Positions 17,951-34,336 of a DNA stretch of 64,000 nucleotides are shown here, piece after piece. The notes under the pieces are model-generated. The model saw only the letters and a list, made by a program, of their open reading frames with translations, was not told the DNA's origin and searched no databases. The DNA lies in assembly GCA_000004985.1 (NCBI GenBank), contig GG738853.1, one strand, 5' to 3'. The DNA is from Naegleria gruberi (Eukaryota). Position 1 is the first letter of the stretch. Each line of letters opens with the position of its first letter. A program made the translations under genes and the position numbers.

Positions 17951-18703
17951 ATGAGCGACGAAGATTTCTTTACCACACCTTCCAACGAAGAAACCCAACA
18001 ACCTGCTGACGAAATGTTCGGCGATCAACAACAACCACAAGAGTCCTTTGATTCTTTCGCTTCTGGTGATGATAATGGATTTGTTGCTGATGATCAAGGT
18101 TTCGATCAACAAGGTTATGTTGAAGAACAAGAACAAGAACAACAAGATTTTGAACAACAAGGTTACGTAGAAGAACAACCAATGACTGTCTATGAACAAC
18201 AACAACAAGAACAATACACCGAACCACCAAAGCAAGTGTCTGCCATCAGAGAATTCGAGGAAAAGAGATACAACGCCCTTATGGAAAAGGACAATGAAAG
18301 CAGAGTGCAACACGATAAAATTTTGGACGAAGCCAAGAATTATAAGGCCAAGTATATCAAGGATCGTGAAGAAAGAAAGGACACAAACTCCAAGAAGAAC
18401 AAGGATGATGAAGAAATCTTCCGTTCAACCATGGAAACTGTTCACGAAAATGTCTGGGAAAATGTTATGAAATATGTTGACTTGAACAAGGCAAAGTCTC
18501 AAAACAAGCTTGACAAGGAATTGGATGATATGGACGAACAAATTCTCGGTAAGAAGAAGAAGAAGAAGAACCAACAAAAGGAAGAAGAAAAGACCACAGT
18601 CAAGAAAGCCGACCAATTTGATCATCTTGAAGTTGAACAAAAGGATACCACTAGACTCAGAAAGATCCTTTTGGAATTAAAGGCAGAAGCTCCAGCTCAT
18701 TAA
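17951..18703 (+). CDS. Clathrin light chain-like protein (250 aa), acidic Q/E-rich N-terminus
   Basis: The C-terminal half (AIREFEEKRYNALMEKD...KDTTRLRKILLELKAEAPAH*) parallels the clathrin light chain conserved region and the characteristic ...SRMRSVLISLKQ-type C-terminus. Single exon, real ATG. Confidence 0.5.
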   Translation: MSDEDFFTTPSNEETQQPADEMFGDQQQPQESFDSFASGDDNGFVADDQGFDQQGYVEEQEQEQQDFEQQGYVEEQPMTVYEQQQQEQYTEPPKQVSAIREFEEKRYNALMEKDNESRVQHDKILDEAKNYKAKYIKDREERKDTNSKKNKDDEEIFRSTMETVHENVWENVMKYVDLNKAKSQNKLDKELDDMDEQILGKKKKKKNQQKEEEKTTVKKADQFDHLEVEQKDTTRLRKILLELKAEAPAH

Positions 18704-18809: not shown

Positions 18810-19808
18810 TTAAGGTCTATTCACCAAGTTAACCAAACTTTGAGTACTCACAACTGCAGATGGGAATTGATTTTCCAATACAATCAATCTGTGAACTCTG
18901 GTTGCCTTCAATCTCTTTACGATAAGTTCCAATGTTGAATCTGGCTTACAATAAATATATGGATACTTTTCATTGACACTCTTTTGACGAACAGCAGATA
19001 AAAAGTCAATAACAGGTAAATCAAGGAGAGCAAATTCACCTTCAGAAACCATTTGAATATCTCTAGAACTTAAAACACTGATCAAATGTTTTTCTTCACT
19101 AACAATTGGCACAAAATTAACCTTATGTTCGGACATCATAACAAAAACATCAATAGTACGCATATTTTCATCAGCACAACATTTCAATTCACGTGATAAA
19201 TGTAATTCATGACAAGTAGCATTGAAAACAGTGTTTCCTTCATTTTCATCAATAATTTCTTTCATCAATTTGATAACATCGGAGTGTGATACAACATTAA
19301 TGATCATACCAGCTTCATCCTCAATAATAATACGCTTATTACCTAAAGCAAATTGTTGAATAGCATCCATAGCAGTGGCTGCTAAAGTAAGAGTTCCATG
19401 AGCATCCATTTTAGAGTAATTAGCAACTTTAATCACAGGTGTATCCAAAATAGCTTTAGCAACTTCTTGATTTTGGAGTAATTGAATTGTAATATTCTTT
19501 CTTGGTGATACTGGTGTATTATTAATATTGGCCATTTCAACAAGAGCTTGTCGGTAAGTATCAACCATGAAAGCAATAATATCACTAAAATCAATAAAGT
19601 GAACTTCTGAAGCTTTTTGAGTCTTTTCCTTGTGCGAATAAATTGGAGCAGAACGAACATCCCACTTCATAAGTTGTTGTATGGCATGAGAAATAGTTTC
19701 ATCTGCAGTAAAAGAGAGAAGGTTTTTCTTTTGACCAACAAGTTGTTCTATAGTGGTATTTTGGAATGTTTCCTTCAAAATTTGCTTAGCAACAGACGTT
19801 GAAGACAT
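18810..19808 (-). CDS. Protein with four tandem CBS domains (about 332 aa), Snf4/AMPK-gamma-like
   Basis: ATG at 19808 (MSSTSVAKQILKETFQNTTIEQL...). The ORF-track start at 19904 is upstream read-through. Four Bateman/CBS repeats (e.g. HRLIVLEN at the C-terminus). Size and architecture match yeast Snf4 (322 aa) and the AMPK gamma core. Confidence 0.7.
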   Translation of the reverse strand: MSSTSVAKQILKETFQNTTIEQLVGQKKNLLSFTADETISHAIQQLMKWDVRSAPIYSHKEKTQKASEVHFIDFSDIIAFMVDTYRQALVEMANINNTPVSPRKNITIQLLQNQEVAKAILDTPVIKVANYSKMDAHGTLTLAATAMDAIQQFALGNKRIIIEDEAGMIINVVSHSDVIKLMKEIIDENEGNTVFNATCHELHLSRELKCCADENMRTIDVFVMMSEHKVNFVPIVSEEKHLISVLSSRDIQMVSEGEFALLDLPVIDFLSAVRQKSVNEKYPYIYCKPDSTLELIVKRLKATRVHRLIVLENQFPSAVVSTQSLVNLVNRP

Positions 19809-20479
19809 GATGATGTGATGATGTAGTGGTGTATATGGAAGTAAATAGATCAAAACTTGTATATTCTTGAAGTGAGTGGCTTTAGTACTACAACAAGAAT
19901 TCAAAATAATAGCGCGAAACGGGAAAGATCAAGCTTTGATATTTTTTTAATAATTTATAATGTTGTTGTTTTTGGGTCTTATTGCTGATGGAACCATTTT
20001 CATCGAATCTTAGCCTTCGTTCATCGCCCAACGAGAATTGAAATAATTAACGAAGTACCCAAGGAAGATTTCAAGTGAGCATCAAAGATAAAATTAACCA
20101 TATTTCTTAACACTTGGTCCTCCAAAGTATACTCTGTTTTAAATGAAAATATGAAATAATATTTGATATCAATGAAGATATTGTTGTTGTTACTGTAGTT
20201 TAGTTTGTTTGGAATGATGTTGAAACTAATCAATAAGACCGGGTCCAAGTATGGTAATCATTAAAATTGTACAAAAGAGGAAAAAGTTGTGGCTCAATTG
20301 AGTAGAATTTTAAAGTAGGTACTCGGTTGTAAATAGCTTGTTTCAGTTCCTATTCGATATCTTGCCATTTCTTCAAATTTATTTATAATTATCATCATTC
20401 CTGTTGAATCAATTTACAATAAAGAGTTTAGAGTTGTTCGTTATTGGGATTCTTGTTTAACCAAATGCTATTAAACATA

Positions 20480-21007
20480 TTACAATTTTAATTCCTCCAA
20501 TTTAATGTCATGAGCATTGAAATGATACTCTTTGAATTTTGAAATTAGTAAACTTTTCATTTCATTTTCCAAATTATTCGAAATTGTAACACTTCCATCA
20601 ACAATTGCATTTCTCAAGACTGCATTTGCATACGATTCCATTGTAATATTATAATCTTTCCCTAATTTTCTGTAAGTATCATTTATATTATCCAATAAAG
20701 GTTCATACTTGACTGAATATCTAATATATTGATCCTTCTCTTTCGTAAAGTATAAAATATTGGAAATTCTTTGTGTTTTAACAGGAAAAAGAGTAGGTTT
20801 TTGAATGAAAGGAATTAAAAAGTGAGGACCCTGTTCTAAAGGTTCTTCAAATTGTGCAGATAACCTATTAAACACAACTCCTTTAAATCCAGGTTTAACA
20901 GAACAATATGATGCCTGGATTGCAATGGCAGTAAGACCTGCTCCGAGAATCCAAAATATTGGTGCCTTTCTTTGGTTGGACATTTTTTTTTGATAGAAGA
21001 TTCTCAT
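20480..21007 (-). CDS. Short SPFH/Band-7 domain protein, prohibitin-like N-terminus (about 175 aa)
   Basis: N-terminal anchor followed by VKPGFKGVVFNRLSAQFEEPLEQGPHFLIPFIQKP (compare prohibitin VDGGHRAVIFDRFRGVQ...GTHFLIPWVQKP) and GKDYNITMESYANAVLRNAIV (compare GEDYDERVLPSI). It lacks the C-terminal coiled coil of prohibitins. The alternative start at 20983 (MSNQRK...) is equally plausible. Confidence 0.55.
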   Translation of the reverse strand: MRIFYQKKMSNQRKAPIFWILGAGLTAIAIQASYCSVKPGFKGVVFNRLSAQFEEPLEQGPHFLIPFIQKPTLFPVKTQRISNILYFTKEKDQYIRYSVKYEPLLDNINDTYRKLGKDYNITMESYANAVLRNAIVDGSVTISNNLENEMKSLLISKFKEYHFNAHDIKLEELKL

Positions 21008-21427
21008 CAATGGTGATCATGTTGATCATTGAGAATCTTTATTGAAAATACTAAGCAGTAGATGAAATAGAAACGCCCATTATTATTGAGATATGAAAGA
21101 AAAGCACATGTATGGTTGGTATGTGAAGAGCTAATCAGTGGATCAGTTGTTTTGTTTCTAATTAAAATTCGAAAGCTCCTTAAAGAAAACAAGATAATGA
21201 TCATTATCAAATCATTAAATTTATCAATGATTTGAAAATGTCAAGTCTTGCAAATATTAATAAAAATAAGGAGCTTCACCATTTTTCACCTTCGTATTGT
21301 TGTCGTTTGAGCCAAGTTGTCAAACACAACAGACAACAATGGTAATACAAAGGGCGATGTAGAAAAAGATGAGAGAAAAAGTCGAAATCATGTCAGACTT
21401 GTCAAACGTTTAAAAAAACTAAAAAAA

Positions 21428-23233
21428 ATGCCAAAACATAAAAGAGTAGGAAAATATGAACTTTTTGAAAAACTAGGAGAAGGAAACTTTTCTAAAGTAA
21501 AACGAGCCATCGATACTGAAACACAAATTCAATATGCCATTAAAATTGTTGATATTTCAAGTGTGGCTAAAGAGGGAATGGAAAAACAAGTGAGAAATGA
21601 AATTTCGGTTTTAAAACAAATTAAACATCCAAACGTTGTACAATTGAAAGAAGTCCTAAAATCAGCAAATAACATTTACATTGTCATGGAATTGATTACT
21701 GGAGGTGAATTATTCGATAAAATTGTTGCTGCTCGTAAATTTACAGAAGATGTTGCTCGTCGTTATTTCCAACAACTTATTGATGGTATTGCCTATTGTC
21801 ATGCCAATAGAATTGCTCACAGAGATTTGAAACCAGAAAATTTATTGTTGGATTCTCATGATAATTTGAAAATTACAGATTTTGGATTGAGTGGTATGAT
21901 GAAACAAGGTGTCATGTTGGAAACTATTTGTGGTACACCTCACTATGTTGCTCCAGTAAGTATTCATCATCATTATCACCATTTATATATTTATATATTT
22001 CTAATTTCTATTTTGTTATTGTTGTATCATCATCATCATCATGTATTTGTATATATATATCTTTATAATAATAGGAAGTTTTGACTGGTAATTATGATGG
22101 TTTCAAAGCAGATATTTGGTCTTGTGGAATTATTCTGTAAGTAATGACAATATAGCAATTCATGAATAACACAATGGAAATTAAATAGTTTTGTCATGTT
22201 GTCGGGATGTCACCCTTTTGATGGTGAAACTGTCAATGATTTATTCAAGAGAATTGAAAATTTAGAATTTAAATATCCATCACACTTTTCAAAAGAAGTT
22301 CGTGCATTGTTAGATAAGATTATTGTTGTTGATCCGAATAATCGTGCTACAATTGCTGATATTCGATATGATCCATGGTTTAAAATTAATTATAATGGAA
22401 CACTTGATGCCATGCTGTCGAGTGTACCAAATACAAGTAATGACTTGGTTGGTGAGAGTGGTGTTATTCAAAATAATGTTACTCAACCAGCAGCTAGTAA
22501 CACAACAACAGATGCAAGTCAACAAGAAGGAAGCTCACAAACAAATGAAAATTCAGGTACAGAAACAACTCAAGTACCACTTCCTGCTAGAATTGTTGTG
22601 AATAATGAGGATTTGGAGAATGCAGTTCAAGATGTCGATATTAATGATGGTGAGGAGAGATTTGTTGTACAAGATCCAAATCAACAACGTGTTCCACGTG
22701 GAAATAGAGGTCAAAAAGTTGATCCATCACGTCGTCGTTTAATGACAGGAGGTACTAATGGAAGTAGTACTGAAAGAATGTCAATTCGTATGCAAAATAT
22801 GGAACAATTGAATGCTTTCGAATTGATTGCTGTCATGATGAGAGGTAAATTGAATCCTCTTGTATCAAAGCACTTTACTAGACGTGCCAATCGTTTCTCA
22901 ACTTGTGGACATCCAGATGATTTATATGATAGAATGATTCAATATTTACATGAAAAGAAATTTATTGTACGACCAAAGGAAACTGAATATGAATTCAAGG
23001 CAATTATTAAGAACAAATTGCATGAAATGAATTTTGCAGTTCAATTCTTTATTGTATCATTCGAAATGATCATTGTGGAGGTTATCAGGTTGAAAGGAAA
23101 CATTTTGAAATTCCAAGAAATTTTCCGTGAACTTCAATCACTATTCGATTATGAAGCTCAAAAGAAGATTCTCTCACGTCCAAATAACTCTATAATATCT
23201 GTAACTAGCAGTCATGATTCCAGTAAGCAATAA
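21428..23233 (+). CDS. Ser/Thr protein kinase, SNF1/AMPK-related (CAMKL) with a KA1-like C-terminal domain, 3 exons: 21428..21955, 22075..22136, 22189..23233, about 544 aa
   Basis: Kinase subdomains GEGNFSKVK, AIK, HRDLKPENLLLD, DFGLS, GTPHYVAPEVL, DIWSCGIIL. Introns of 118 nt (CAT-repeat-rich) and 52 nt with GTAAGT donors. The C-terminus (EYEFKAIIKNKLHEMNFAVQFFIVSFEMIIVEVIRLKGNILKFQEIFREL) resembles the AMPK-alpha/MARK KA1 fold. The ORF-track start at 21317 is a TTG, and the first in-frame ATG is at 21428. Confidence 0.8.
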
Positions 23234-23829: not shown

Positions 23830-26697
23830 ATGTTCAACAATGAACAATTATTATTGATAATTTATTCATTGGCAATACTTGCTTTCATCATTATTATTTT
23901 GTGCTATTTAAAAAAAATGTCTACATCAGCTAAGCCTTCCGTTCAAGAAATTCAAAAGGTTTACGTCCTTGTTGATGAAAGAAAGGATGTGAATGCTCTT
24001 AAAGAATGTGATGCCATGTTGCAAAAGTATCCAGAGTCTAGTGTTTTTCTCTCATTCAAGGCTTTAATTTTGATGAATTTAGGAAAGAGAAAGGAATCTA
24101 TTCAACTTGTTGATGATGTTTTAGCACAAAAGAAGATGGAATTTCACGATTTTATTCTCCGAACATTGAGTATGGCTTTGGAAAAGGTACACGATTATAA
24201 GAGAATTGCAGAATTATATGAAAAAGTATATAATGCCATTCCGGCTCAAGCAATTACACAATATGAAGATGTGATTGAAAAGTATTTCTATAGTTTGGTA
24301 AGAAGTAATCAAACTGAAAAACAACAAACAACAGCTGCCAAACTTGCTCGTGCCTTCCCTGATAATCAACTTTATTCTTATTGGAATATTTGTAGTATGT
24401 TACTTATTGGAAAGGAAAAACCTCTTCTCTTCAAATTGGCATCTAAAATGTTAGAAAAGGAATTTTCACTTGAAAACAAAGATGTTAAAAAATTAGATGG
24501 TGTTATTTATTCGGAAAGATTGAGATTATACATTGAATCTGTATTGAATGCCACCAGTGATTATGAAGGTATTATCAAATTGATAATTAATGATGAACCA
24601 TGGGGAAAGGAACTTGAACCTCTTCCATTTGATAGAAAGGCAATTCTTGCTGGATATTGTTTAAAGGTTGAAAAGTATTATACTTTAGCCAATGGTATTT
24701 ATACTCATCTTTTGGAAAATGAAGATTCTGATGAATGGCCTTGGTGGTTGGGATTGATTCAAAGTACATTGTTGGCTATTCAAACAGGACAAAGTACTAC
24801 CTCTATGGAATGGGAAGGGAAAACATTGAATTGTCACACCTCTATTGAATCATTACATAATTTTATTAAATCTCACCAAAATAGCAAGGATAAGAGAGGT
24901 CCATACTTGGCAGAATTGGAATTAATGAAAGTTTTGAAACAAAAGCAAATGAATGACTACAAATTTGAAAAGGAGGCCAACGAATTAATTATCAACTATT
25001 TCAAGACATTTGGATCAAGAAAGATTTGCTACGACGATCTTAAGGTATACCTCGAACTGGTAGCCGATCTTAGTCAACTTTTGTCAAAAATTTATTCTTC
25101 AATTGATTCATTGAAAGTTAATCAAATTGACAAGATTGAATATCAAATTACCTTCTTCAAGATCCAAAGACATACAAAGCAAAATGTTTGCTGTGCAACA
25201 GAGGATGAATTGATTACCACCCTCGTTTCAAACTATGCCCAAGCCCTTCCTCTTGGTAAGAATTTACTTGAAACTGATAGTCAATATGGTGATGAGTTTT
25301 TATTGATTGCTGCTCACTATCTCTTGGATAGAAAGGAGTATACTTCAGCAGTTATTCTTTTGGAGCTTGCCTTGAAGAGATCCAAGTACAACTTCCACTT
25401 CAAGGTTCTTTTAATTAGAGTCTATGCAACCATGAGGTCATTATCATCACGAGCATTTACTATCTTTTTGAATGAATTGGATGTCAAGCATATCCAATAT
25501 GAAAGTATCAGCTATTTAATTTATCATGACTTGATGGGAGTTGGTGTTTGTGATAGAGGTGTTAAGGTTGCTGAAAAGATTCTCAAATTCTACGACTCTG
25601 AACATAGACTTTACACTTCACAATATCTTGCTCTTCCATATCAAAAACAAAGTTGGTCCAAGATTGAAGAAATGACAAAGTTCAACAGTAGAATCGATAA
25701 TTCTTACTCTATTGCTAAAGCTCAAATTGACAAACTTTATCTCAAGCTTGTTTTTGATGATGTTCGTTCAGCCAGAGATATTTCAGAACAATTGAATATG
25801 ACTGATTTGGATGATTACATTTATCACTCAGTCAAGTCTTCAGGAAAGTCTTTCTCACACAATGAAGATATCTCAATTCTTAAATATTTCGGTAATGAAG
25901 ATTTGAAGAATAATATTTTAATTCCAAAAGAGCTTGTTGAAAGACCATCATTGGACGAATCTTTCACAAAACTCAGAATTATTGAAATTATTTCTGACTT
26001 TGTAGCCAACAAGGAAATTTCAGTATCCAAACCACCTATCCAAATTATTAATCCAAAGAAGAAGAAATCAGAAAAGGAAAATCTTGAACATGCTGCTAAA
26101 GTTAAGGAACACGAAAGAAAGGTTGAAAATGCCAAGAAGGCTTTGATGAAACTCAAAGAAAAGGCAGAGAAATTATTGAAATCTATTGAAGGACTTAATT
26201 TACCGATCTATGTTTCTCAAATAATCAACTATATCATTTCTCTCGTTGGTGATGAAACCCCAAAGACTGACTTGTTGGACTCTTTCATTCAAACTTTTGG
26301 ATCGATAGACTTTTTGCAAAATAAGGATAACTTACACTTATTGACCCATGAAATCATTTGGGGACTTACATTCTTCCAATTTATTTATTCTCTCATCAAA
26401 GATTTGGGAGCCAAGTCAGACAAGACATATGCCTCTCTTCTTCTTAAATTCAAATCCACACTTTTACAAAAGGCCACACAAATTGATACATTCATCAGGG
26501 AGAGCAGAAAGAACATCACTACCCTCTCGGAGAATACCTCAATTTCTCACTTTTTCACTTCCCTATCATCCTATGATTGGGATGTTGTCTCCAAAGAAGT
26601 TTTATTGGACCTCAACAGTCAAGTTCATAAGGGTGGCTACTTGAACAATAAGATTGAACAAATTATCAGCAGTATGGTATTCCAATACAGTAAATAA
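23830..26697 (+). CDS. NAA25: TPR-like helical protein, probable N-terminal acetyltransferase B (NatB) auxiliary subunit (NAA25/Mdm20-like), about 955 aa (alternative ATG at 23917)
   Basis: The N-terminal region (LKECDAMLQKYPES...; YSYWNICSMLLIGK compared with YYFWSVMSLIMQ) parallels NAA25. Single long exon. The first 29 codons are hydrophobic and may be UTR. Confidence 0.5.
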   Translation: MFNNEQLLLIIYSLAILAFIIIILCYLKKMSTSAKPSVQEIQKVYVLVDERKDVNALKECDAMLQKYPESSVFLSFKALILMNLGKRKESIQLVDDVLAQKKMEFHDFILRTLSMALEKVHDYKRIAELYEKVYNAIPAQAITQYEDVIEKYFYSLVRSNQTEKQQTTAAKLARAFPDNQLYSYWNICSMLLIGKEKPLLFKLASKMLEKEFSLENKDVKKLDGVIYSERLRLYIESVLNATSDYEGIIKLIINDEPWGKELEPLPFDRKAILAGYCLKVEKYYTLANGIYTHLLENEDSDEWPWWLGLIQSTLLAIQTGQSTTSMEWEGKTLNCHTSIESLHNFIKSHQNSKDKRGPYLAELELMKVLKQKQMNDYKFEKEANELIINYFKTFGSRKICYDDLKVYLELVADLSQLLSKIYSSIDSLKVNQIDKIEYQITFFKIQRHTKQNVCCATEDELITTLVSNYAQALPLGKNLLETDSQYGDEFLLIAAHYLLDRKEYTSAVILLELALKRSKYNFHFKVLLIRVYATMRSLSSRAFTIFLNELDVKHIQYESISYLIYHDLMGVGVCDRGVKVAEKILKFYDSEHRLYTSQYLALPYQKQSWSKIEEMTKFNSRIDNSYSIAKAQIDKLYLKLVFDDVRSARDISEQLNMTDLDDYIYHSVKSSGKSFSHNEDISILKYFGNEDLKNNILIPKELVERPSLDESFTKLRIIEIISDFVANKEISVSKPPIQIINPKKKKSEKENLEHAAKVKEHERKVENAKKALMKLKEKAEKLLKSIEGLNLPIYVSQIINYIISLVGDETPKTDLLDSFIQTFGSIDFLQNKDNLHLLTHEIIWGLTFFQFIYSLIKDLGAKSDKTYASLLLKFKSTLLQKATQIDTFIRESRKNITTLSENTSISHFFTSLSSYDWDVVSKEVLLDLNSQVHKGGYLNNKIEQIISSMVFQYSK

Positions 26698-26788
26698 ATT
26701 TATCATGTTACCAACAGCTACTTGACAATCAACTTGATCTGTTGAATATTGGAGTGTTCTAAAGTATCAAACCCTTACGAGAAAAAAA

Positions 26789-29700
26789 ATGGTAGTTCTC
26801 TCCCTTAAAAAAACCAATGTAAGTTTTTGGTTTCATTGATCATGAGGATCATCATTGTTAAAAATAGGGCGTGGAGGACATGATCCTTCTAAGGAATGCA
26901 ACTGATAATGATATTGTTAATAATTTAAGAACAAGATACATTAATAATACTATTTACAGCTATATTTCTGATGTATTAATTAGTGTAAATCCATATGAAC
27001 CAATTCATGGATTATACAGCCACGAGCAAGTCGATATCTACAAGAATAGATATTTCAATGAGGTTCCTCCTCACTTGTATGCTATTGCCGAGAAGGCTTA
27101 CAGAAACTTACAAAGTAAGTTTATATTTATGAGAATTCAAATTAATCAAACTTTATATTAAGAACATTTAAAAAGTCAATGTATTATAATTTCAGGAGAA
27201 AGTGGAAGTGGAAAGGTTTGTTTATAAATTTCCTTCTTACTAATTTAAGTTTCAGACTGAGGCATGTAAAGAAATATTAAAATACGTTTCCATTGTGAGT
27301 GGAAATGATGAAGATGTTCTCCGAGTGAAGAATATTATTTCAGAGAGCAATCCATTGTTAGAAGCCTTTGGTAATGCTAAAACAACTCGAAACGACAATT
27401 CATCAAGATTTGGAAAATATTTTGAAATCATGTTTGATAGTATTGGAAAACCTTTAGGGGGTGAGATTACTATTTATTTGTTGGAAAAGAGTAGAATATG
27501 TAATGTACCAAAAGGAGAACGAAGCTTTCATATTTTCTATCAAATGATAAGAGGAATAGATTCAAAGATTAAGGATGCCTTGGGAATTTTAAATATTGAA
27601 GAGTATTACTTTCTAAATCATTCAAATTGTGATTCAATTTCTGGTGTGAACGATGCCGAAAGATTTCAAACAACAGTCGTAAGTTTCAGCACAAATATGC
27701 AATTTTAATTATTATCTAAATACAGAGAGCTATGACTTCAATGGGGATAGACCAAGAAAATCAGTTAAGAATTTTCAAATATCTTTCTGCTATCTTGTTA
27801 TTGGGTAATTTACAATTTTCTGAAAATGGAACATCAACAAAAGTTATCAATAGAAAGCATCTTTTAAAATGTGCCAGTTTGCTAAACATTGATGAAACTC
27901 TTCTTGAAGGAGCAATGACAAAGAGAATTATATACGCTGAAGGTCGTCCAATAGAAACTCTTCACAATTCTATTCAAGCCAAGAATACAAGAGATGCTCT
28001 TGCTAAACTGATTTATGAAAGAGTTTTCCATTTTGTTTTGAAAAATGTAAATAATGCCATGAAATGCTCAGACTTTGATTTGACTATTGATATTTTGGAC
28101 ATTTATGGATTTGAAGTGTTTGAATCAAATTCTTTTGAACAATTAATAAGCAACTATGTGAATGAAAAATTGCAAAACATATTCTCAGATATGGTTATAA
28201 AATCAGAAATTGATGAATATGAGGAGGAGGGAGTTCCACACAGTACTGGAAACCATGTCAGCAACAAACCTATTTGTGAGTTAATTGATGGTAACAATCC
28301 ACCAGGGATAATGGCTTTATTAGATAGCATTTGTGCATACTCAAGTGCAGAAGATTCCTATGAGGCTGATAAGAAGTTTTTGGAGGCCCTCTCAACGATC
28401 AACAATAAGAATTTCTCTAAGAGATCCAACAGCTTTATTGTTGAACACTATGCTGGTCCAGTTTCATACAATGGGTTTTCTTTTACAGAAAAGAATAAGG
28501 ATTCATTGTCGAGGGATGTTATCTCGTGTATTCAAAGTACAAATGATAATCTGCTGTATAGGTTCTTCCCTGACAATACAGACTCAAAGAAAAGACCACC
28601 AACTGCTTCTGCAAAGATCAGAAAGAGCATAGATGAGTTGATTCAATCTATCTCAATAAGAGAAACTCATTATATTAGATGTATAAAACCAAACGAGACA
28701 AAGCAACCAAGGCAATTAGATTTAAAGAAAGCACTTCACCAAGTTAAATATTTAGGATTATTGGAAAATGTAAAGTTAAGAAGGAATGGCTATTGTTACC
28801 GAGACAGTTTTGCAGAATTTTTCAACAAATATCGTGTTTTGTTTAGAAATACTGTAGACTGGAGTGGAAGTATTGAACAAGGAGCGCTTGCTATTTTATC
28901 TGATTGTGACATTCCTTCCACAGAGTATTTCATTGGAAAGTCAAAAATCTTCCTGAAATCACCTGCATCTGTGGCTGTCTTAGATGAATTAATGGATAGA
29001 TATTACCACAGCAAAGCTACAATTATTGCAAGAGCATTTAGAAGATACCAATTCAAAAAATACTTGCAAAGTTTGAAAGCCAAAGCATTAGATGTTTTGA
29101 GAGACAAGAAACAAAGAAGAAGAAATTCGGTTTGTAGAGAGTATCGAGGAGATTATTTGGACTTTTTTAATAATGCTCAATTATTAGAAATCATGCAACC
29201 TTACAAACATGAAGGTGGAGTTTTCTTTGCTGATCATTTCAAAAGACCAAAGGCAAAACTCTTCAAATCAGAACCAGCAATGGCTAGATTACAAGGAATA
29301 ATTACTCAAAAAGCAATCTACTTTATATCCAGATCAAAAGTGAAGGAAAGATTTTGTTTGTCCATCTACAAGAGAATCCCATTTTCTCAATTGGATTGTG
29401 TAATATTATCAAATCTTCCAGATAATTGGATGTGCATTAAGATTTTGGATGATTGTGCAATTTTCTGTCAGAGTGAACATAAGGTTGAATTCTTGACAAT
29501 ATTGGACGACTTGTACAAAAAGGAAATAGGTGGTGATCTTCACATATTATTTTCGAATGATTACGAATATGAATACAAGAAAAAGAAGTTCAAAAAGGTT
29601 GAATTCATTACAGATTATACTAACAGACACCGTGAATCTGTTATTCAATCAACAAAAACATTCAATTTCCAAATTACTGTTTCCAAAGGTCTCTCCTACG

Positions 29701-30203
29701 AGCAAGTTTGTGAAATTGCAAAGAAATCATTCTCCAAATTAACTAGTTCTCAAAAATCCCATAACTCATCATTTGGATTGGCTCTTGGAAGTTTGGGAAA
29801 TTGTCCTAAATTACCAGTTGTTGTAGAGCCTATTGCAAATGCTCTTCCCCCACCTCTTCCTAAAACAAAGCCAATTGTTATTGACTCAGATGATCAAATT
29901 AAGCTGCCTATTATTGAACAACCACCAACTATTGTTGAATCAAATCAAAATGATGATCCAATTGATGAAAATCAACCAACAAGACTATTAGTTCTGTACG
30001 ACTACCATGCTGCTCTTGAAGATGAGCTCACTCTGAAAGATGGAGATGTTGTTAATCTCATAAAAATGAATTCTGACGGCTGGGGATTGGGAGAGATTGT
30101 TGATCCTGGAGACAGAAAAAAGGTTGGATTTTTCCCGCTTAATTATTGTGTTGATGAAAACTCATTTCTCAATTTCTACTCAAATTCAGATACCTTGCAA
30201 TAA
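26789..30203 (+). CDS. Class I myosin, long-tailed (motor, IQ, TH1, Pro-rich TH2, C-terminal SH3), 5 exons: 26789..26818, 26868..27114, 27163..27215, 27256..27678, 27726..30203, about 1076 aa
   Basis: Exon 1 MVVLSLKKTN splices to GVEDMILL (the conserved myosin head start). P-loop SQCIIISGESGSGKTEACK spans a 53-nt micro-exon. Switch I NAKTTRNDNSSRFGKYFEI and switch II are present. The tail has LPPPLPKTKP and a terminal SH3 (LLVLYDYHAALEDELTLKDGDVVNL...GWGLGEI...GFFPLNYC). Introns are 49, 48, 40 and 47 nt. Confidence 0.85.
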
Positions 30204-31754
30204 TTAAATTATCACTTTGAATGCATTAATAAAGGCTGCTACAATATTAAGGATTAGAATAACCTTGAATGTGGATAGAATTCTTCTATATACTGTCTTC
30301 ACTCTTTCAATTTCTTCTTTAGAAGTTGTGAAATATTGTATGTAGTAAATGAAAAGAGTCTCATATATCTTGGCTCCATCTAAGAATTCGACAGGAGCCA
30401 AATTAAAAACTGCCAATCCAAGAGAAAGAGCTGCCGTATATTCTAACAACTTTTGAGCATAAAATGCCATACCAAGAGTCATAAATTTCGAAAATAGGTT
30501 AATAACCTTTACATCACTGACAACTACCTGACTGAAGAATTGTTCCAAAGTTCCCATATATAATAAGTCTTGTTTTCCTAATACAGATACACGCAATATA
30601 TGAATGGAAGAATCTGAATGAGGTAAAATACATTCGTGATCGTCTGGTTCTGGTACACCATTACACACTGAAAAGACTGTAGTTTGTCTTACATTCATGC
30701 AAACATCTTCCTTTCCTTTAAAACAAAGTAGACTATATCTTTCGTCATCGTTTTCATCAGTGCAACACTTATTATTGTACGATTGCCTTTGTTGTTCTAT
30801 GTGTTTTTTTGGTACCATGAATCCTCTTTTTGATTTCAATTCTTGAATAACCTCCATGAAATTATCCACCTTTGAAATTGAGAGGCCATTAATTGAAAGA
30901 ATATTGTCATACTGATTCAAGTCTCCATAGAGTGGATTTTCCGTATGAACATGCTTTACAAATACTCCATTTGCAGGTCTTTCCACAATCGACAAGAATG
31001 AAGTTGGATTGAAAAATAGAAATAATCCAAATCCAATAATAATACATAAAATAATATTATGCCATACACCTCCACAATAAACCATTAATCTTACAAAAAG
31101 TGGTCTCCTTTCTAAACTTTCAGTTTCAATAGCTACAAATGCACTCGGAAGGAAGTAGAATATTGAAAATCCAAATGATTCAACTTTAACATCATGATAA
31201 TCTGCTGCTATGGCATGTCCAAATTCGTGAACTATTAAACAAACCACCAAAGCAATTATCAGAAGGCTAACCTGATTTAGTGGAATATTAACACCAGGAA
31301 TTAACATCACCATATCCATTTTAGGTAATGTAGGAGCAGCTTCAACACTCTTAGGATGCATATATTCATTTGAAGGAATCAATCCAAACACAAAGTAAAA
31401 TAAATGAAATACCAAAAATGCAGCACAAATCACTAACATTATCATGCTTAAATAAACACCAATCATGAAACTAATCTTGAAAAATCGACTAGCAAGCACA
31501 TTCATCGAATTTCTCATTGCAAATAATTGTTTAGGTAAATATCTAGAAAATCCACTCCATTCGAAAGTAATAAATCCAAATCCATGTTCTGTAATATTAA
31601 ACATTGCACAAAACTCCGAATAGCCTGTCCCATCCGATTTGAAATATTTAATTCCGAAGGGAATCAACCACAATATCGACAATATACAAACAACACCAAT
31701 AAATAACCCGTACGATCCAACAACATCGCCCATCACATCAAGCAATTCTCCCAT
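30204..31754 (-). CDS. Site-2 protease (S2P/MBTPS2-like), M50 family intramembrane zinc metalloprotease with a PDZ and Cys-rich insert (516 aa)
   Basis: HEFGHA (HExxH) within a TM helix, a downstream LDGA motif, multiple TM segments, and a central Cys-rich luminal insert as in metazoan MBTPS2. Real ATG at 31754. Its stop codon directly abuts the myosin I stop codon. Confidence 0.75.
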   Translation of the reverse strand: MGELLDVMGDVVGSYGLFIGVVCILSILWLIPFGIKYFKSDGTGYSEFCAMFNITEHGFGFITFEWSGFSRYLPKQLFAMRNSMNVLASRFFKISFMIGVYLSMIMLVICAAFLVFHLFYFVFGLIPSNEYMHPKSVEAAPTLPKMDMVMLIPGVNIPLNQVSLLIIALVVCLIVHEFGHAIAADYHDVKVESFGFSIFYFLPSAFVAIETESLERRPLFVRLMVYCGGVWHNIILCIIIGFGLFLFFNPTSFLSIVERPANGVFVKHVHTENPLYGDLNQYDNILSINGLSISKVDNFMEVIQELKSKRGFMVPKKHIEQQRQSYNNKCCTDENDDERYSLLCFKGKEDVCMNVRQTTVFSVCNGVPEPDDHECILPHSDSSIHILRVSVLGKQDLLYMGTLEQFFSQVVVSDVKVINLFSKFMTLGMAFYAQKLLEYTAALSLGLAVFNLAPVEFLDGAKIYETLFIYYIQYFTTSKEEIERVKTVYRRILSTFKVILILNIVAAFINAFKVII

Positions 31755-32113
31755 TTTTTTTAAAACTTTAAAAATTAGAATATTTTACAATGATGTAATA
31801 CAAATTACAAAACACGTGTTTTCCATAGTTTATGAAACTGAACATTTAATAGTATTATGGAACAATATTATGAAAACTTCCATTAAAAATCTATTTTCTT
31901 AATAGGAATGACATTATACAATGTAATCGTAATCATCAAATTCCTTACAAAAAAAAATGAGCAGTCACGATGAGGGAAGAGTATTGTTTGTTTCAACAAG
32001 AGGGCAATTAACAAGGAAGTCTTCCACCACTTTGAGTCATACAAAGGAAATAAGTTTTAATAATTCGGAAGAGGTGGCTGTTATTTAAAAATCGAGAATT
32101 ATTTGGGAATGTT

Positions 32114-34336
32114 ATGTGGATGGTGTTGATTTCGTGTATTGTGATGTTTGTGTCGATGCAACAACTTCAGTCATTCAACAGTGTTGCTGCCGCCTCCGAC
32201 AATTCTACATTTAGTTGCAGTGTAATTGTAAATAATCAAGCGAATCAGAGTTTATCGGATAGGAATTGTTTGAATGGGGGTAAATGTGTTTTAGAGAAGG
32301 GAATTTGTAATTGTACAAGTGGATTTACAGGATCAAATTGCTCTATTACCATTGTTGCACCTATTCCTCAGAGCACCATTAATGAAACAACAAAAAACGA
32401 GACTAATTCAACCTCACTTGATAATACCAAGGATATTATCTCTAATACTACAAATAATAGCACAAATCCAGATAATAATATTGTCACTCCTCCAACTTGG
32501 AAATGTGTTCAAGGCGTGAATTGTATATTTGGAAATTGTACTTCAGATGGAAAATTTTGTAATTGTAGTATTGAGGCATTTACAGTGAAAAATGAAACCC
32601 TTGTAGATCCATTGGATATGGTTTATTGTAATTATAAGAACTGTCCAAATAATTGCTCAATGAATGGTGTTTGTGATTATAGTACTGGACAGTGCATATG
32701 CTCTGAGCCTTATTTCAGTAATGATTGTTCTCTAAAGAATTGTACGGTATCATGCGTGAAAGGACAAGGAGATTGTGACTTTAATACTGGAAAATGCAAA
32801 TGTAAAGACCCTTATTTTGGAAAAGATTGTTCCTCAATTCAGTGTGCAGATCCATCATGCAATTCTGTAGGAAGATGTAACCATAAGAAGGGATTGTGTG
32901 AATGTGATGCTGACCATTTTGGAGATGCTTGTCAATTTTGGCTTTGTAAGAATAACTGTACACAACATGGATTTTGTAACACCACAACTTCACTGTGTTC
33001 ATGTGTTGGAGCCTGGACAGAAAGAGATTGTGGAGTCAATTCAAACGTTGTGGAGATGGGAAAGATCAAAGAAAGCTCAAGAATTATCGGTACTTTATTT
33101 GTATTCCTCGTCCCAATATCATTAGTTATTGGCTCATATTATGTGACATATTCCTACTTTGGAGGCTATTTCTTTTTGATAGTGGAGATTTTCCAATTCA
33201 TTGGTATAACCAGTTTGATTGGAAGTAATAGCCCAGCTCTCTATTTGAAATATTCCTCGTTTTTTGAGTGGTCAAACTTTTTATTTAGCACTGCTGAATC
33301 TGCTGTTGTTCAATCTGCTGCAGTAGAAATTGGTGATATTGTTGTTCGATCAGTAGAAGAGGAACGATTGCTCCTCTACAAATTAATTGGTATTTCATTT
33401 ATTGATAACTTGTAAGTTTACTCTCATTGAAATATTAATCATCTATTTAGTGTATTGATTACAACCTCAATCGCTATTGCCATTATGATTTCAGTTTCAC
33501 TAATCCTTATCAAAGTTATTAGAGAAAAGTATTCCGTTTACAATAACCAAGATATTGATGTAATGAAGGACAGAATATTCATTGTTTCTATTAGGTTATC
33601 CTTGCTTGTTTATTCTGGTATTAGTTTGAGTACATTTTATCAAATCAAAATGACCTTGCTTTCACAAGCTCCTATTGTGACACTTTTTACTGCTCTCTCA
33701 ATATTTGTGGCATTTGTTCTTGGTTTTCCCTTCTTGGCAAGTGTTGTACTCAAAGCCAACAGTGACAAGATTTGTCAAAATACTACACACAAAGACTCTC
33801 CATTTACTCCTCTCCACAATGAATTCAAACCAGCAACATATCAATTCTTATTAATAGTCCTCATTAAGAAATGCGCATTCTCATTTGTTATTGGATTTTT
33901 TGAGGGTATTGAGTTATTGATTGGTCTATTGTGTCTCCAAGTTACTTATTTATTTATTATTCTGATTCTTAGACCATATACCCAACCTGGAAGAAACACC
34001 ATTCAAATCATGGTTGAAGCTGTCAATTTATTCAACATTGTTGTATTGGTTCTATTCAATGCCTTTCCATTTAACTCATTTGCCTCAAATCTCCTTACCA
34101 TCATTACAATTTTCCTTCACTGCTGTATTATTATCCTTGCTGTTGTCATTTGCATCTTTGAAAAGAAGAGAAATACTGAAACAAATTCTTCTGGCTACAG
34201 AGCTGGTCTTTTAACAGAAGAAGAACTTGAAATTCAAGGAACTCACACCATTTTTGAAAGTGATTCTGAAGATGAAAGAGTCAATAATTTAGATTTACGA
34301 TCTGATTTTCATGAAATTGACCTAGATAATAAATAA
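32114..34336 (+). CDS. Signal peptide + about 7 tenascin/laminin-type EGF-like Cys repeats + multi-pass (about 9 TM) membrane domain, 2 exons: 32114..33411, 33451..34336, about 727 aa
   Basis: Repeats of the form CxCxxGFTGSNC / CSxNGVCDYSTGQCICSEPYFSNDC, with N-glycosylation sequons. Then hydrophobic helices across a 39-nt intron (TT|GTAAGT...tttag). The acidic C-terminal tail is ESDSEDERV. It may be related to the EGF + DUF3522 (TMEM8/PGAP6-like) architecture, but that is unverified. Confidence 0.65.

Follow-up and report, generated by a model that had tools for sequence, protein, structure and literature searches.

An AMPK-gamma-like gene, a CIPK-type kinase gene and a truncated prohibitin-like gene are probably unrelated neighbours in Naegleria gruberi

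The DNA analysed here is a 64,000-nucleotide stretch of contig GG738853.1 (assembly GCA_000004985.1) of the heterolobosean Naegleria gruberi, hereafter called the window. It is AT-rich (~32% GC) and eukaryotic, and between positions 18810 and 23233 it carries three genes, encoding a protein with CBS motifs, a short protein of the SPFH/prohibitin type and a protein kinase. The original prediction had interpreted these as the physical clustering of an AMPK-alpha/SNF1-like kinase with a gamma-like subunit, next to an atypical prohibitin-like protein. The presence of the three genes at this place could be confirmed, as each translation is 100% identical over its whole length to an NCBI protein of N. 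gruberi NEG-M (see Table 1 for positions and accessions). The open reading frames first proposed were not accurate in detail, since they began at TTG codons instead of the true starts, and the short second exon of the kinase gene had been missed; splicing of the three kinase exons yields the 544-residue protein XP_002680434. The NCBI/UniProt labels of these proteins are "predicted protein" (XP_002680581, the CBS protein), "Prohibitin" (XP_002680582) and "serine/threonine protein kinase" (XP_002680434). Pfam matches agree with these broad classes, with 60.7 bits over four stretches for CBS (PF00571), 43.3 bits for Band_7 (PF01145; cut-off 23.6) and 262.8 bits for Pkinase.

On sequence grounds, the kinase is a member of the CIPK/SnRK3 type and not an AMPK-alpha catalytic subunit. 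All catalytic motifs are intact and the T-loop threonine is present, the latter being a feature that would equally fit AMPK-alpha. The same can be said of strong matches in a phmmer search of the PDB to Schizosaccharomyces pombe Ssp2 (262 bits), Snf1 (256 bits) and AMPK-alpha2 (236 bits), and of a kinase-domain identity of 45–48% to AMPK-alpha2, Snf1 and SnRK1. CIPKs score higher, however, both in this search (CIPK24/SOS2 307 bits, CIPK23 286 bits) and in kinase-domain identity, which is 50–59% for the CIPKs of protists; SIK3 and MARK rank after AMPK-alpha2 in the PDB search, at about 226–233 bits. In a search of 5.8 billion proteins, the named relatives of the kinase are CBL-interacting kinases of Diplonema, Andalucia, Anaeramoeba and plants.

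The same affiliation is found when 34 kinase domains are compared in a tree built by neighbour-joining (253 columns, 500 bootstraps). The references come from Beckmann et al. 2016 (PMC4990929; supplement) and were complemented with the kinase domains of AMPK-alpha2 and MARK2, verified to be 100% identical to the PDB chains, and with those of Snf1 and Ssp2, for which PDB alignments were the source. The kinase forms an orthogroup with proteins from Naegleria lovaniensis, Willaertia magna and Acrasis kona (100% bootstrap support), and this orthogroup is nested, at 72% support, within the clade of the CIPKs. All 500 bootstraps recovered human alpha2, Snf1, Ssp2, SnRK1.1 and SnRK1.2 as a clade to the exclusion of the kinase, and none of them (0/500) gave a clade that included it.

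The C-terminal part of the protein points in the same direction. C-terminal to the catalytic domain, at residues 404–412, the kinase contains the sequence LNAFELIAV, of which the surrounding region LNAFELIAVMMRGKLNPLVS is close to its counterpart LNAFDLASMLMMGSMNPLMS in NgrCIPK1. PMC4990929 describes the NAF domain as unique to CIPKs and as the feature that defines them, and the motif is kept in the orthologues of N. lovaniensis, Willaertia and Acrasis as well as in the reference CIPKs. The references for SnRK1 and SnRK2 do not contain it, and those for AMPK, Snf1, Ssp2 and MARK2, being kinase domains alone, are silent on its presence. A profile of the C-terminal region (profile A2) was compared with the PDB, where it matches CIPK23 (E-value 3.1e-18), the regulatory domain of CIPK24 as crystallised with SOS3 (2ehb_D, 3.9e-18) and a CIPK regulatory fragment (2zfd_B, 2.4e-6). 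The sole non-CIPK match below an E-value of 0.01 is the KA1 domain of Chk1 (5e-4), and among the PDB chains, which include full-length alpha chains, the profile recovered no AMPK-alpha chain at E<=10 and no MARK chain. A hidden Markov model (HMM) built from the four kinase orthologues alone finds CIPKs of Anaeramoeba, Pythium and Trichomonas as well as NgrCIPK1, with E-values from 1e-10 to 4e-4. When the full protein was compared with Pfam at E<=10, kinase families were found, and no AMPK-alpha autoinhibitory or C-terminal domain. The KA1-like C-terminus that had been taken as an AMPK-alpha feature is thus a NAF/regulatory domain of the CIPK type.

The kinase is absent from the published list of N. 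gruberi CIPKs (PMC4990929) and shares 57% kinase-domain identity with both NgrCIPK1 and NgrCIPK2. As it differs from these two proteins, it represents a third heterolobosean CIPK lineage. One CBL is reported for N. gruberi (PMC4990929). If it works like the CIPKs of plants and Trichomonas, the kinase would be autoinhibited by its own NAF/regulatory region, and binding of Ca2+-loaded CBL to the NAF helix would both release the kinase and target it. A kinase of this kind would sense calcium, not adenylate charge.

The linker between the catalytic domain and the NAF motif comprises ~140 residues of low complexity, rich in Asn, Gln, Thr and Ser (residues about 265–395, window about 22391–22780). 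The NAF motif starts at residue ~294–345 in the reference CIPKs examined, compared to residue 405 in the kinase. Relatives in kinetoplastids and diplonemids have D-A-F in place of N-A-F.

The CBS protein is, by homology and predicted fold, the heterolobosean orthologue of AMPK-gamma/Snf4, the adenine-nucleotide-binding subunit, and in this respect the original prediction was right. Its 332 residues contain four tandem CBS motifs, i.e. two Bateman modules. With the single sequence as query, the best solved relatives in the PDB are gamma-1 (E-value 1e-10), the S. pombe gamma subunit and Snf4. A large-database search gave ten relatives, all from Heterolobosea, of which the Acrasis protein is annotated as "AMP-activated protein kinase subunit gamma". 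In a ten-sequence profile, positions 5–310 of 313 align to residues 26–322 of human gamma-1 (E-value 2e-21), and Snf4 (1.7e-10) and S. pombe gamma (~2e-10) are matched as well; the best non-AMPK match, MJ1225, is partial, covering two CBS motifs (4.7e-7). An AlphaFold (AF2) model based on the ten-sequence alignment had a pLDDT (predicted local distance difference test) value of 87.9 and a predicted template-modelling (TM) score (pTM) of 0.85. When this model was compared with the PDB by Foldseek, ranks 1–41 were taken by AMPK-gamma, Snf4 or S. pombe gamma throughout (41/41), with E-values down to 2.6e-20 and TM-scores of 0.64–0.76.

Several residues of human gamma-1 are retained, i.e. R70, R152, H298 and R299 (R52, R159 and H306-R307 in the CBS protein), and others are substituted, with H151 replaced by Lys (K158) and both K170 and K243 by Ser. 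From mammalian structures, we take R70, H151, R152, K170, H298 and R299, together with the Asp residues of CBS1, CBS3 and CBS4, to be the nucleotide-contacting residues of gamma-1, in which the ribose-binding Asp is present in CBS1, CBS3 and CBS4 and R171 lies at CBS2. In the heterolobosean gamma-like proteins, a ribose-binding Asp in an [ST]xxD context is found in CBS2 (D177), CBS3 (D250) and CBS1 in ten out of ten sequences, the CBS1 residue (D76) being taken from the phmmer register and less certain, as two alignment methods place the register of CBS1 three residues apart. CBS4 lacks this Asp in all ten sequences, having S324 in the N. gruberi protein, and Ser, Asn, Gln or His across the set, at the position of human D317. 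This pattern suggests that the set of usable nucleotide sites in heterolobosean gamma may differ from that in mammals. By analogy with other gamma subunits, the CBS protein would bind adenine nucleotides inside an AMPK-type heterotrimer, whose alpha and beta subunits are presumably the products of genes elsewhere in the genome.

The SPFH protein is, by sequence comparison, a very divergent, fast-evolving and truncated paralogue of the prohibitins that is specific to N. gruberi. It consists of a hydrophobic anchor at about residues 9–25, with the stretch IFWILGAGLTAIAIQA at residues 9–24, followed by the SPFH core. Its best solved relatives in the PDB are prohibitins (E-values 3e-12 to 2e-7). 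When 1.84 billion representatives were scanned exhaustively with HMMER, the best non-self match reached 53.7 bits at 30% identity and the named top matches were prohibitins, and in a word-indexed homologue search the protein recovered itself alone. Five full-length prohibitins, used as queries in tblastn, align to the gene over about residues 11–182 only (window 20486–20956), and the protein stops at the equivalent of prohibitin residue ~176–182, just ahead of the coiled coil. The C-terminal ~90 residues of these five prohibitins had no tblastn match in the whole window, in agreement with the view that the protein is truncated after the SPFH core. A downstream exon for the missing C-terminus was considered and rejected, as a three-frame translation of 19905–20520 (minus strand) and tblastn yielded no plausible candidate. 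An orthologue is absent from the syntenic site in the three other Naegleria genomes (loci L001, L003 and L004). Signatures of insertion were also sought around the gene, and nothing but short, AT-rich repeats of low identity, both direct and inverted, came to light, which is consistent with chance. A single-sequence AlphaFold model was unusable (pLDDT 41.8). An in-frame ATG is located eight codons upstream of the annotated start (21005–21007, minus strand; MRIFYQKK-MSNQ...), and the N-terminus of the protein is therefore uncertain by eight residues.

Having lost the coiled coil of the prohibitin ring, the SPFH protein could be a decaying copy or could have changed its role. A plausible, though not favoured, form of this idea is that the open reading frame is a non-functional relic, a decaying prohibitin duplicate of which the frame is still open. 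The absence of a syntenic orthologue and the extreme divergence (30% identity to the best of 1.84e9 representatives) would fit such a relic, as would the loss of the coiled coil, since prohibitin subunits contact one another most strongly through their C-terminal helices, which also build the top of the bell (PMC11991916). On the other hand, the intact frame of 167 codons in AT-rich DNA argues that the gene is not a long-dead pseudogene; the probability of such a frame by chance in ~30% GC DNA is estimated at ~1e-6, as inferred from ~0.076 stops per codon. Also, the N-terminal anchor is kept, the Band_7 score is well above the Pfam cut-off, and the GC content at third codon positions is similar to that of the neighbouring genes. 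The missing orthologue and the loss of the assembly domain speak for decay or for a changed role.

Gene order was also compared across Heterolobosea. The gamma and kinase genes are adjacent in four Naegleria genomes, i.e. N. gruberi, N. lovaniensis and two more assemblies, with the SPFH gene between them in N. gruberi alone. In the three other genomes they are arranged head-to-head with 0.5–1.3 kb between the start codons, and the encoded proteins are 81–85% identical. The orthologues of the two genes are placed on separate contigs, with unrelated neighbours, in both Willaertia magna and Acrasis kona. The clathrin light chain gene adjoins gamma tail-to-tail in N. gruberi, in every other Naegleria locus (L001, L003, L004 and L005) and also in Willaertia (L006), as determined by tblastn, and this linkage is therefore conserved more deeply than the gamma-kinase adjacency. 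An unrelated gene thus keeps its link with gamma just as stably and over a longer span, so that plain microsynteny is enough to account for the pattern, and the head-to-head arrangement of gamma and kinase looks like microsynteny inherited within the genus Naegleria, as a compact genome would yield, rather than a functional cluster. Synteny between N. gruberi and N. lovaniensis ends directly downstream of the kinase gene. Blastn with word size 7 detected no conserved intergenic sequence when the N. gruberi locus was compared with four related ones; nucleotide conservation with the relatives starts at about 21414–21423, just before the ATG of the kinase.

Upstream of the Willaertia gamma gene (L006 4424–7612, plus strand), a gene encodes a 1062-residue DYRK-like kinase with long Asn- and Gln-rich tails. 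It was considered as a possible AMPK-alpha and rejected on the basis of its activation loop (YIQSRFYRAPE) and its CMGC-like sequence. As this neighbour is DYRK-like, the occurrence of a kinase beside gamma in Willaertia is a coincidence.

Taken together, we propose that the locus is probably an ordinary gene-dense stretch holding three functionally unrelated neighbours, namely a gamma subunit gene, a CIPK-type kinase gene and a gene for a truncated prohibitin. Some observations weigh against this interpretation. The support for the CIPK clade is moderate at 72%, and the full split between CIPK and non-CIPK kinases received 43–64%, in a tree made by neighbour-joining and not by maximum likelihood. 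The Pfam NAF model (PF03822) scores the kinase at 13.9 bits (E-value 0.063) with a cut-off of 25. That separate AMPK-alpha and AMPK-beta subunits exist in N. gruberi is an assumption, and nothing specific was found in the literature on an N. gruberi inventory of AMPK-alpha, beta or gamma. Finally, the retention of the gamma-kinase pair in four Naegleria genomes is compatible with some shared regulation, without requiring it. As to the second point, PF03822 appears insensitive to protist CIPKs, because accepted members of the family also fall below the cut-off: NgrCIPK1 scores 13.5 bits, TvaCIPK, which has been validated experimentally, reaches 21.8 bits, and NgrCIPK2 gives no score at all. For the same reason, screens for NAF that depend on an HMM threshold would under-count the CIPKs of protists.

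The original prediction had also suggested co-regulation from the shared intergenic regions. In its present form this would mean that the gamma and CIPK genes share a bidirectional promoter, which would put calcium signalling and energy sensing under joint control. The divergent orientation and the short distance between the start codons, kept in three other Naegleria genomes, would suit such a promoter. In N. gruberi, however, the SPFH gene splits the pair, so that a single common intergenic region no longer exists; no intergenic nucleotide conservation was detected in the blastn comparison, the two genes are not linked in Willaertia or Acrasis, and the linkage between clathrin light chain and gamma is equally stable and longer-lived. 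A shared promoter is accordingly very unlikely. We attach hardly any credence to the combined proposal that gamma and the third CIPK are held head-to-head by co-regulation or joint action and that, at the same time, the nucleotide sites of heterolobosean gamma are shifted, with CBS2 competent and CBS4 not. The weakest proposal, an AMPK-alpha/SNF1 catalytic subunit clustered with its own gamma as an energy-sensor pair, has in its favour a neighbour that is truly gamma-like, but it is largely refuted and barely tenable, as a kinase that is not AMPK-alpha leaves no alpha-gamma pair to explain and the linkage is absent in Willaertia and Acrasis. In terms of orthology, and judged by the refuting condition that the original prediction had set, the two identities from which it started have therefore fared differently, that of the CBS protein surviving and that of the kinase being refuted.

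Table 1. Genes, exons and other features of the locus and of its surroundings. Positions refer to the window, except for the last four rows, which refer to loci of related species; aa, amino acids.
Feature	Position	Strand	Remarks
Clathrin light chain gene	17951..18703	+	Pfam Clathrin_lg_ch; tail-to-tail with gamma gene
AMPK-gamma/Snf4-like CBS gene	18810..19808	-	single exon, 332 aa; XP_002680581 / D2V5Q2
Intergenic, CBS start codon to SPFH stop codon	19809..20479		671 bp
Short prohibitin-like SPFH gene	20480..20983	-	167 aa; XP_002680582 / D2V5Q3
Intergenic, between divergent SPFH and kinase genes	20984..21427		444 bp, from gene models
Kinase exon 1	21428..21955	+	start codon and most of catalytic domain, to ...GTPHYVAP
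Kinase intron 1	21956..22074	+	119 nt, GTAAGT...AG
Kinase exon 2	22075..22136	+	62 nt; EVLTGNYDGFKADIWSCGIIL
Kinase intron 2	22137..22188	+	52 nt, GTAAGT...AG
Kinase exon 3	22189..23233	+	end of catalytic domain, linker, NAF motif, C-terminal regulatory domain, stop codon
N-A-F tripeptide, aa 405-407	22811..22819	+	inside LNAFELIAVMMRGKLNPLVS; from translation
CIPK-type regulatory region, about aa 395-525	22781..23173	+	NAF and phosphatase-interaction-like, KA1-like domain; profile matches
NatB/MDM20 auxiliary subunit	23830-26697		downstream of kinase
Class-I myosin with TH1 and SH3 domains	27732-30203		downstream of kinase
M50 site-2 protease	30204-31754	-	downstream of kinase
EGF-repeat protein and TRP-like channel fragment	within 23830-34336		downstream of kinase
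Clathrin light chain, L001	6129-6848		tblastn
Clathrin light chain, L003	2711-3427		tblastn
Clathrin light chain, L004	2440-3177		tblastn
Clathrin light chain, L006	9025-9789		tblastn

The surroundings of the three genes are listed in Table 1 as well. The spacer between the convergent clathrin light chain and gamma genes is 106 bp long and has a GC content of just 9%. The genes 3' of the kinase (window 23830–34336) are unrelated housekeeping or signalling genes.

A clustering of AMPK catalytic and gamma genes would have been unusual for a eukaryote if real, and it does not exist here, which changes little for biology at large. What is new lies within known families, i.e. a CIPK paralogue missing from the published list, a gamma subunit of divergent sequence and a short prohibitin that is an orphan. 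The third heterolobosean CIPK lineage, missed by a screen with the Pfam NAF model, adds to CBL-CIPK signalling outside plants. The unusual pattern of ribose-binding Asp residues in heterolobosean gamma could be of interest for comparisons of nucleotide-site usage across AMPK complexes, and N. gruberi has an orphan prohibitin that lacks the coiled coil.

In comparison to known systems, the CBS protein resembles AMPK gamma-1, Snf4 and S. pombe Cbs2 in size, in the presence of four CBS motifs, in similarity that is colinear over the full length and in predicted fold, with TM-scores of 0.69–0.76. It differs from human gamma-1 in overall sequence (~18% identity), in having an Asp (D177) where gamma-1 has Arg171, and in lacking the Asp of CBS4. 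The SPFH protein shares an N-terminal anchor and the SPFH/PHB core with PHB1 and PHB2, which form rings in the mitochondrial inner membrane, but it lacks the ring-forming coiled coil and is only ~30% identical to any known protein. With AMPK-alpha, Snf1 and SnRK1, the kinase has in common its membership of the same broad SNF1-related/CAMKL group and the T-loop threonine, yet it falls outside their clade and has a NAF regulatory domain instead of an autoinhibitory/UBA-like domain and a beta/gamma-binding C-terminal domain. With CIPK24/SOS2, CIPK23, TvCIPK and NgrCIPK1/2 it shares the [LM]NAF[ED]LI context, after which come a basic xRF motif and a regulatory domain homologous to those of CIPK23 and CIPK24; it is set apart from these named CIPKs by its separate heterolobosean orthogroup (Naegleria, Willaertia and Acrasis), its long linker and a NAF that scores below the Pfam threshold.

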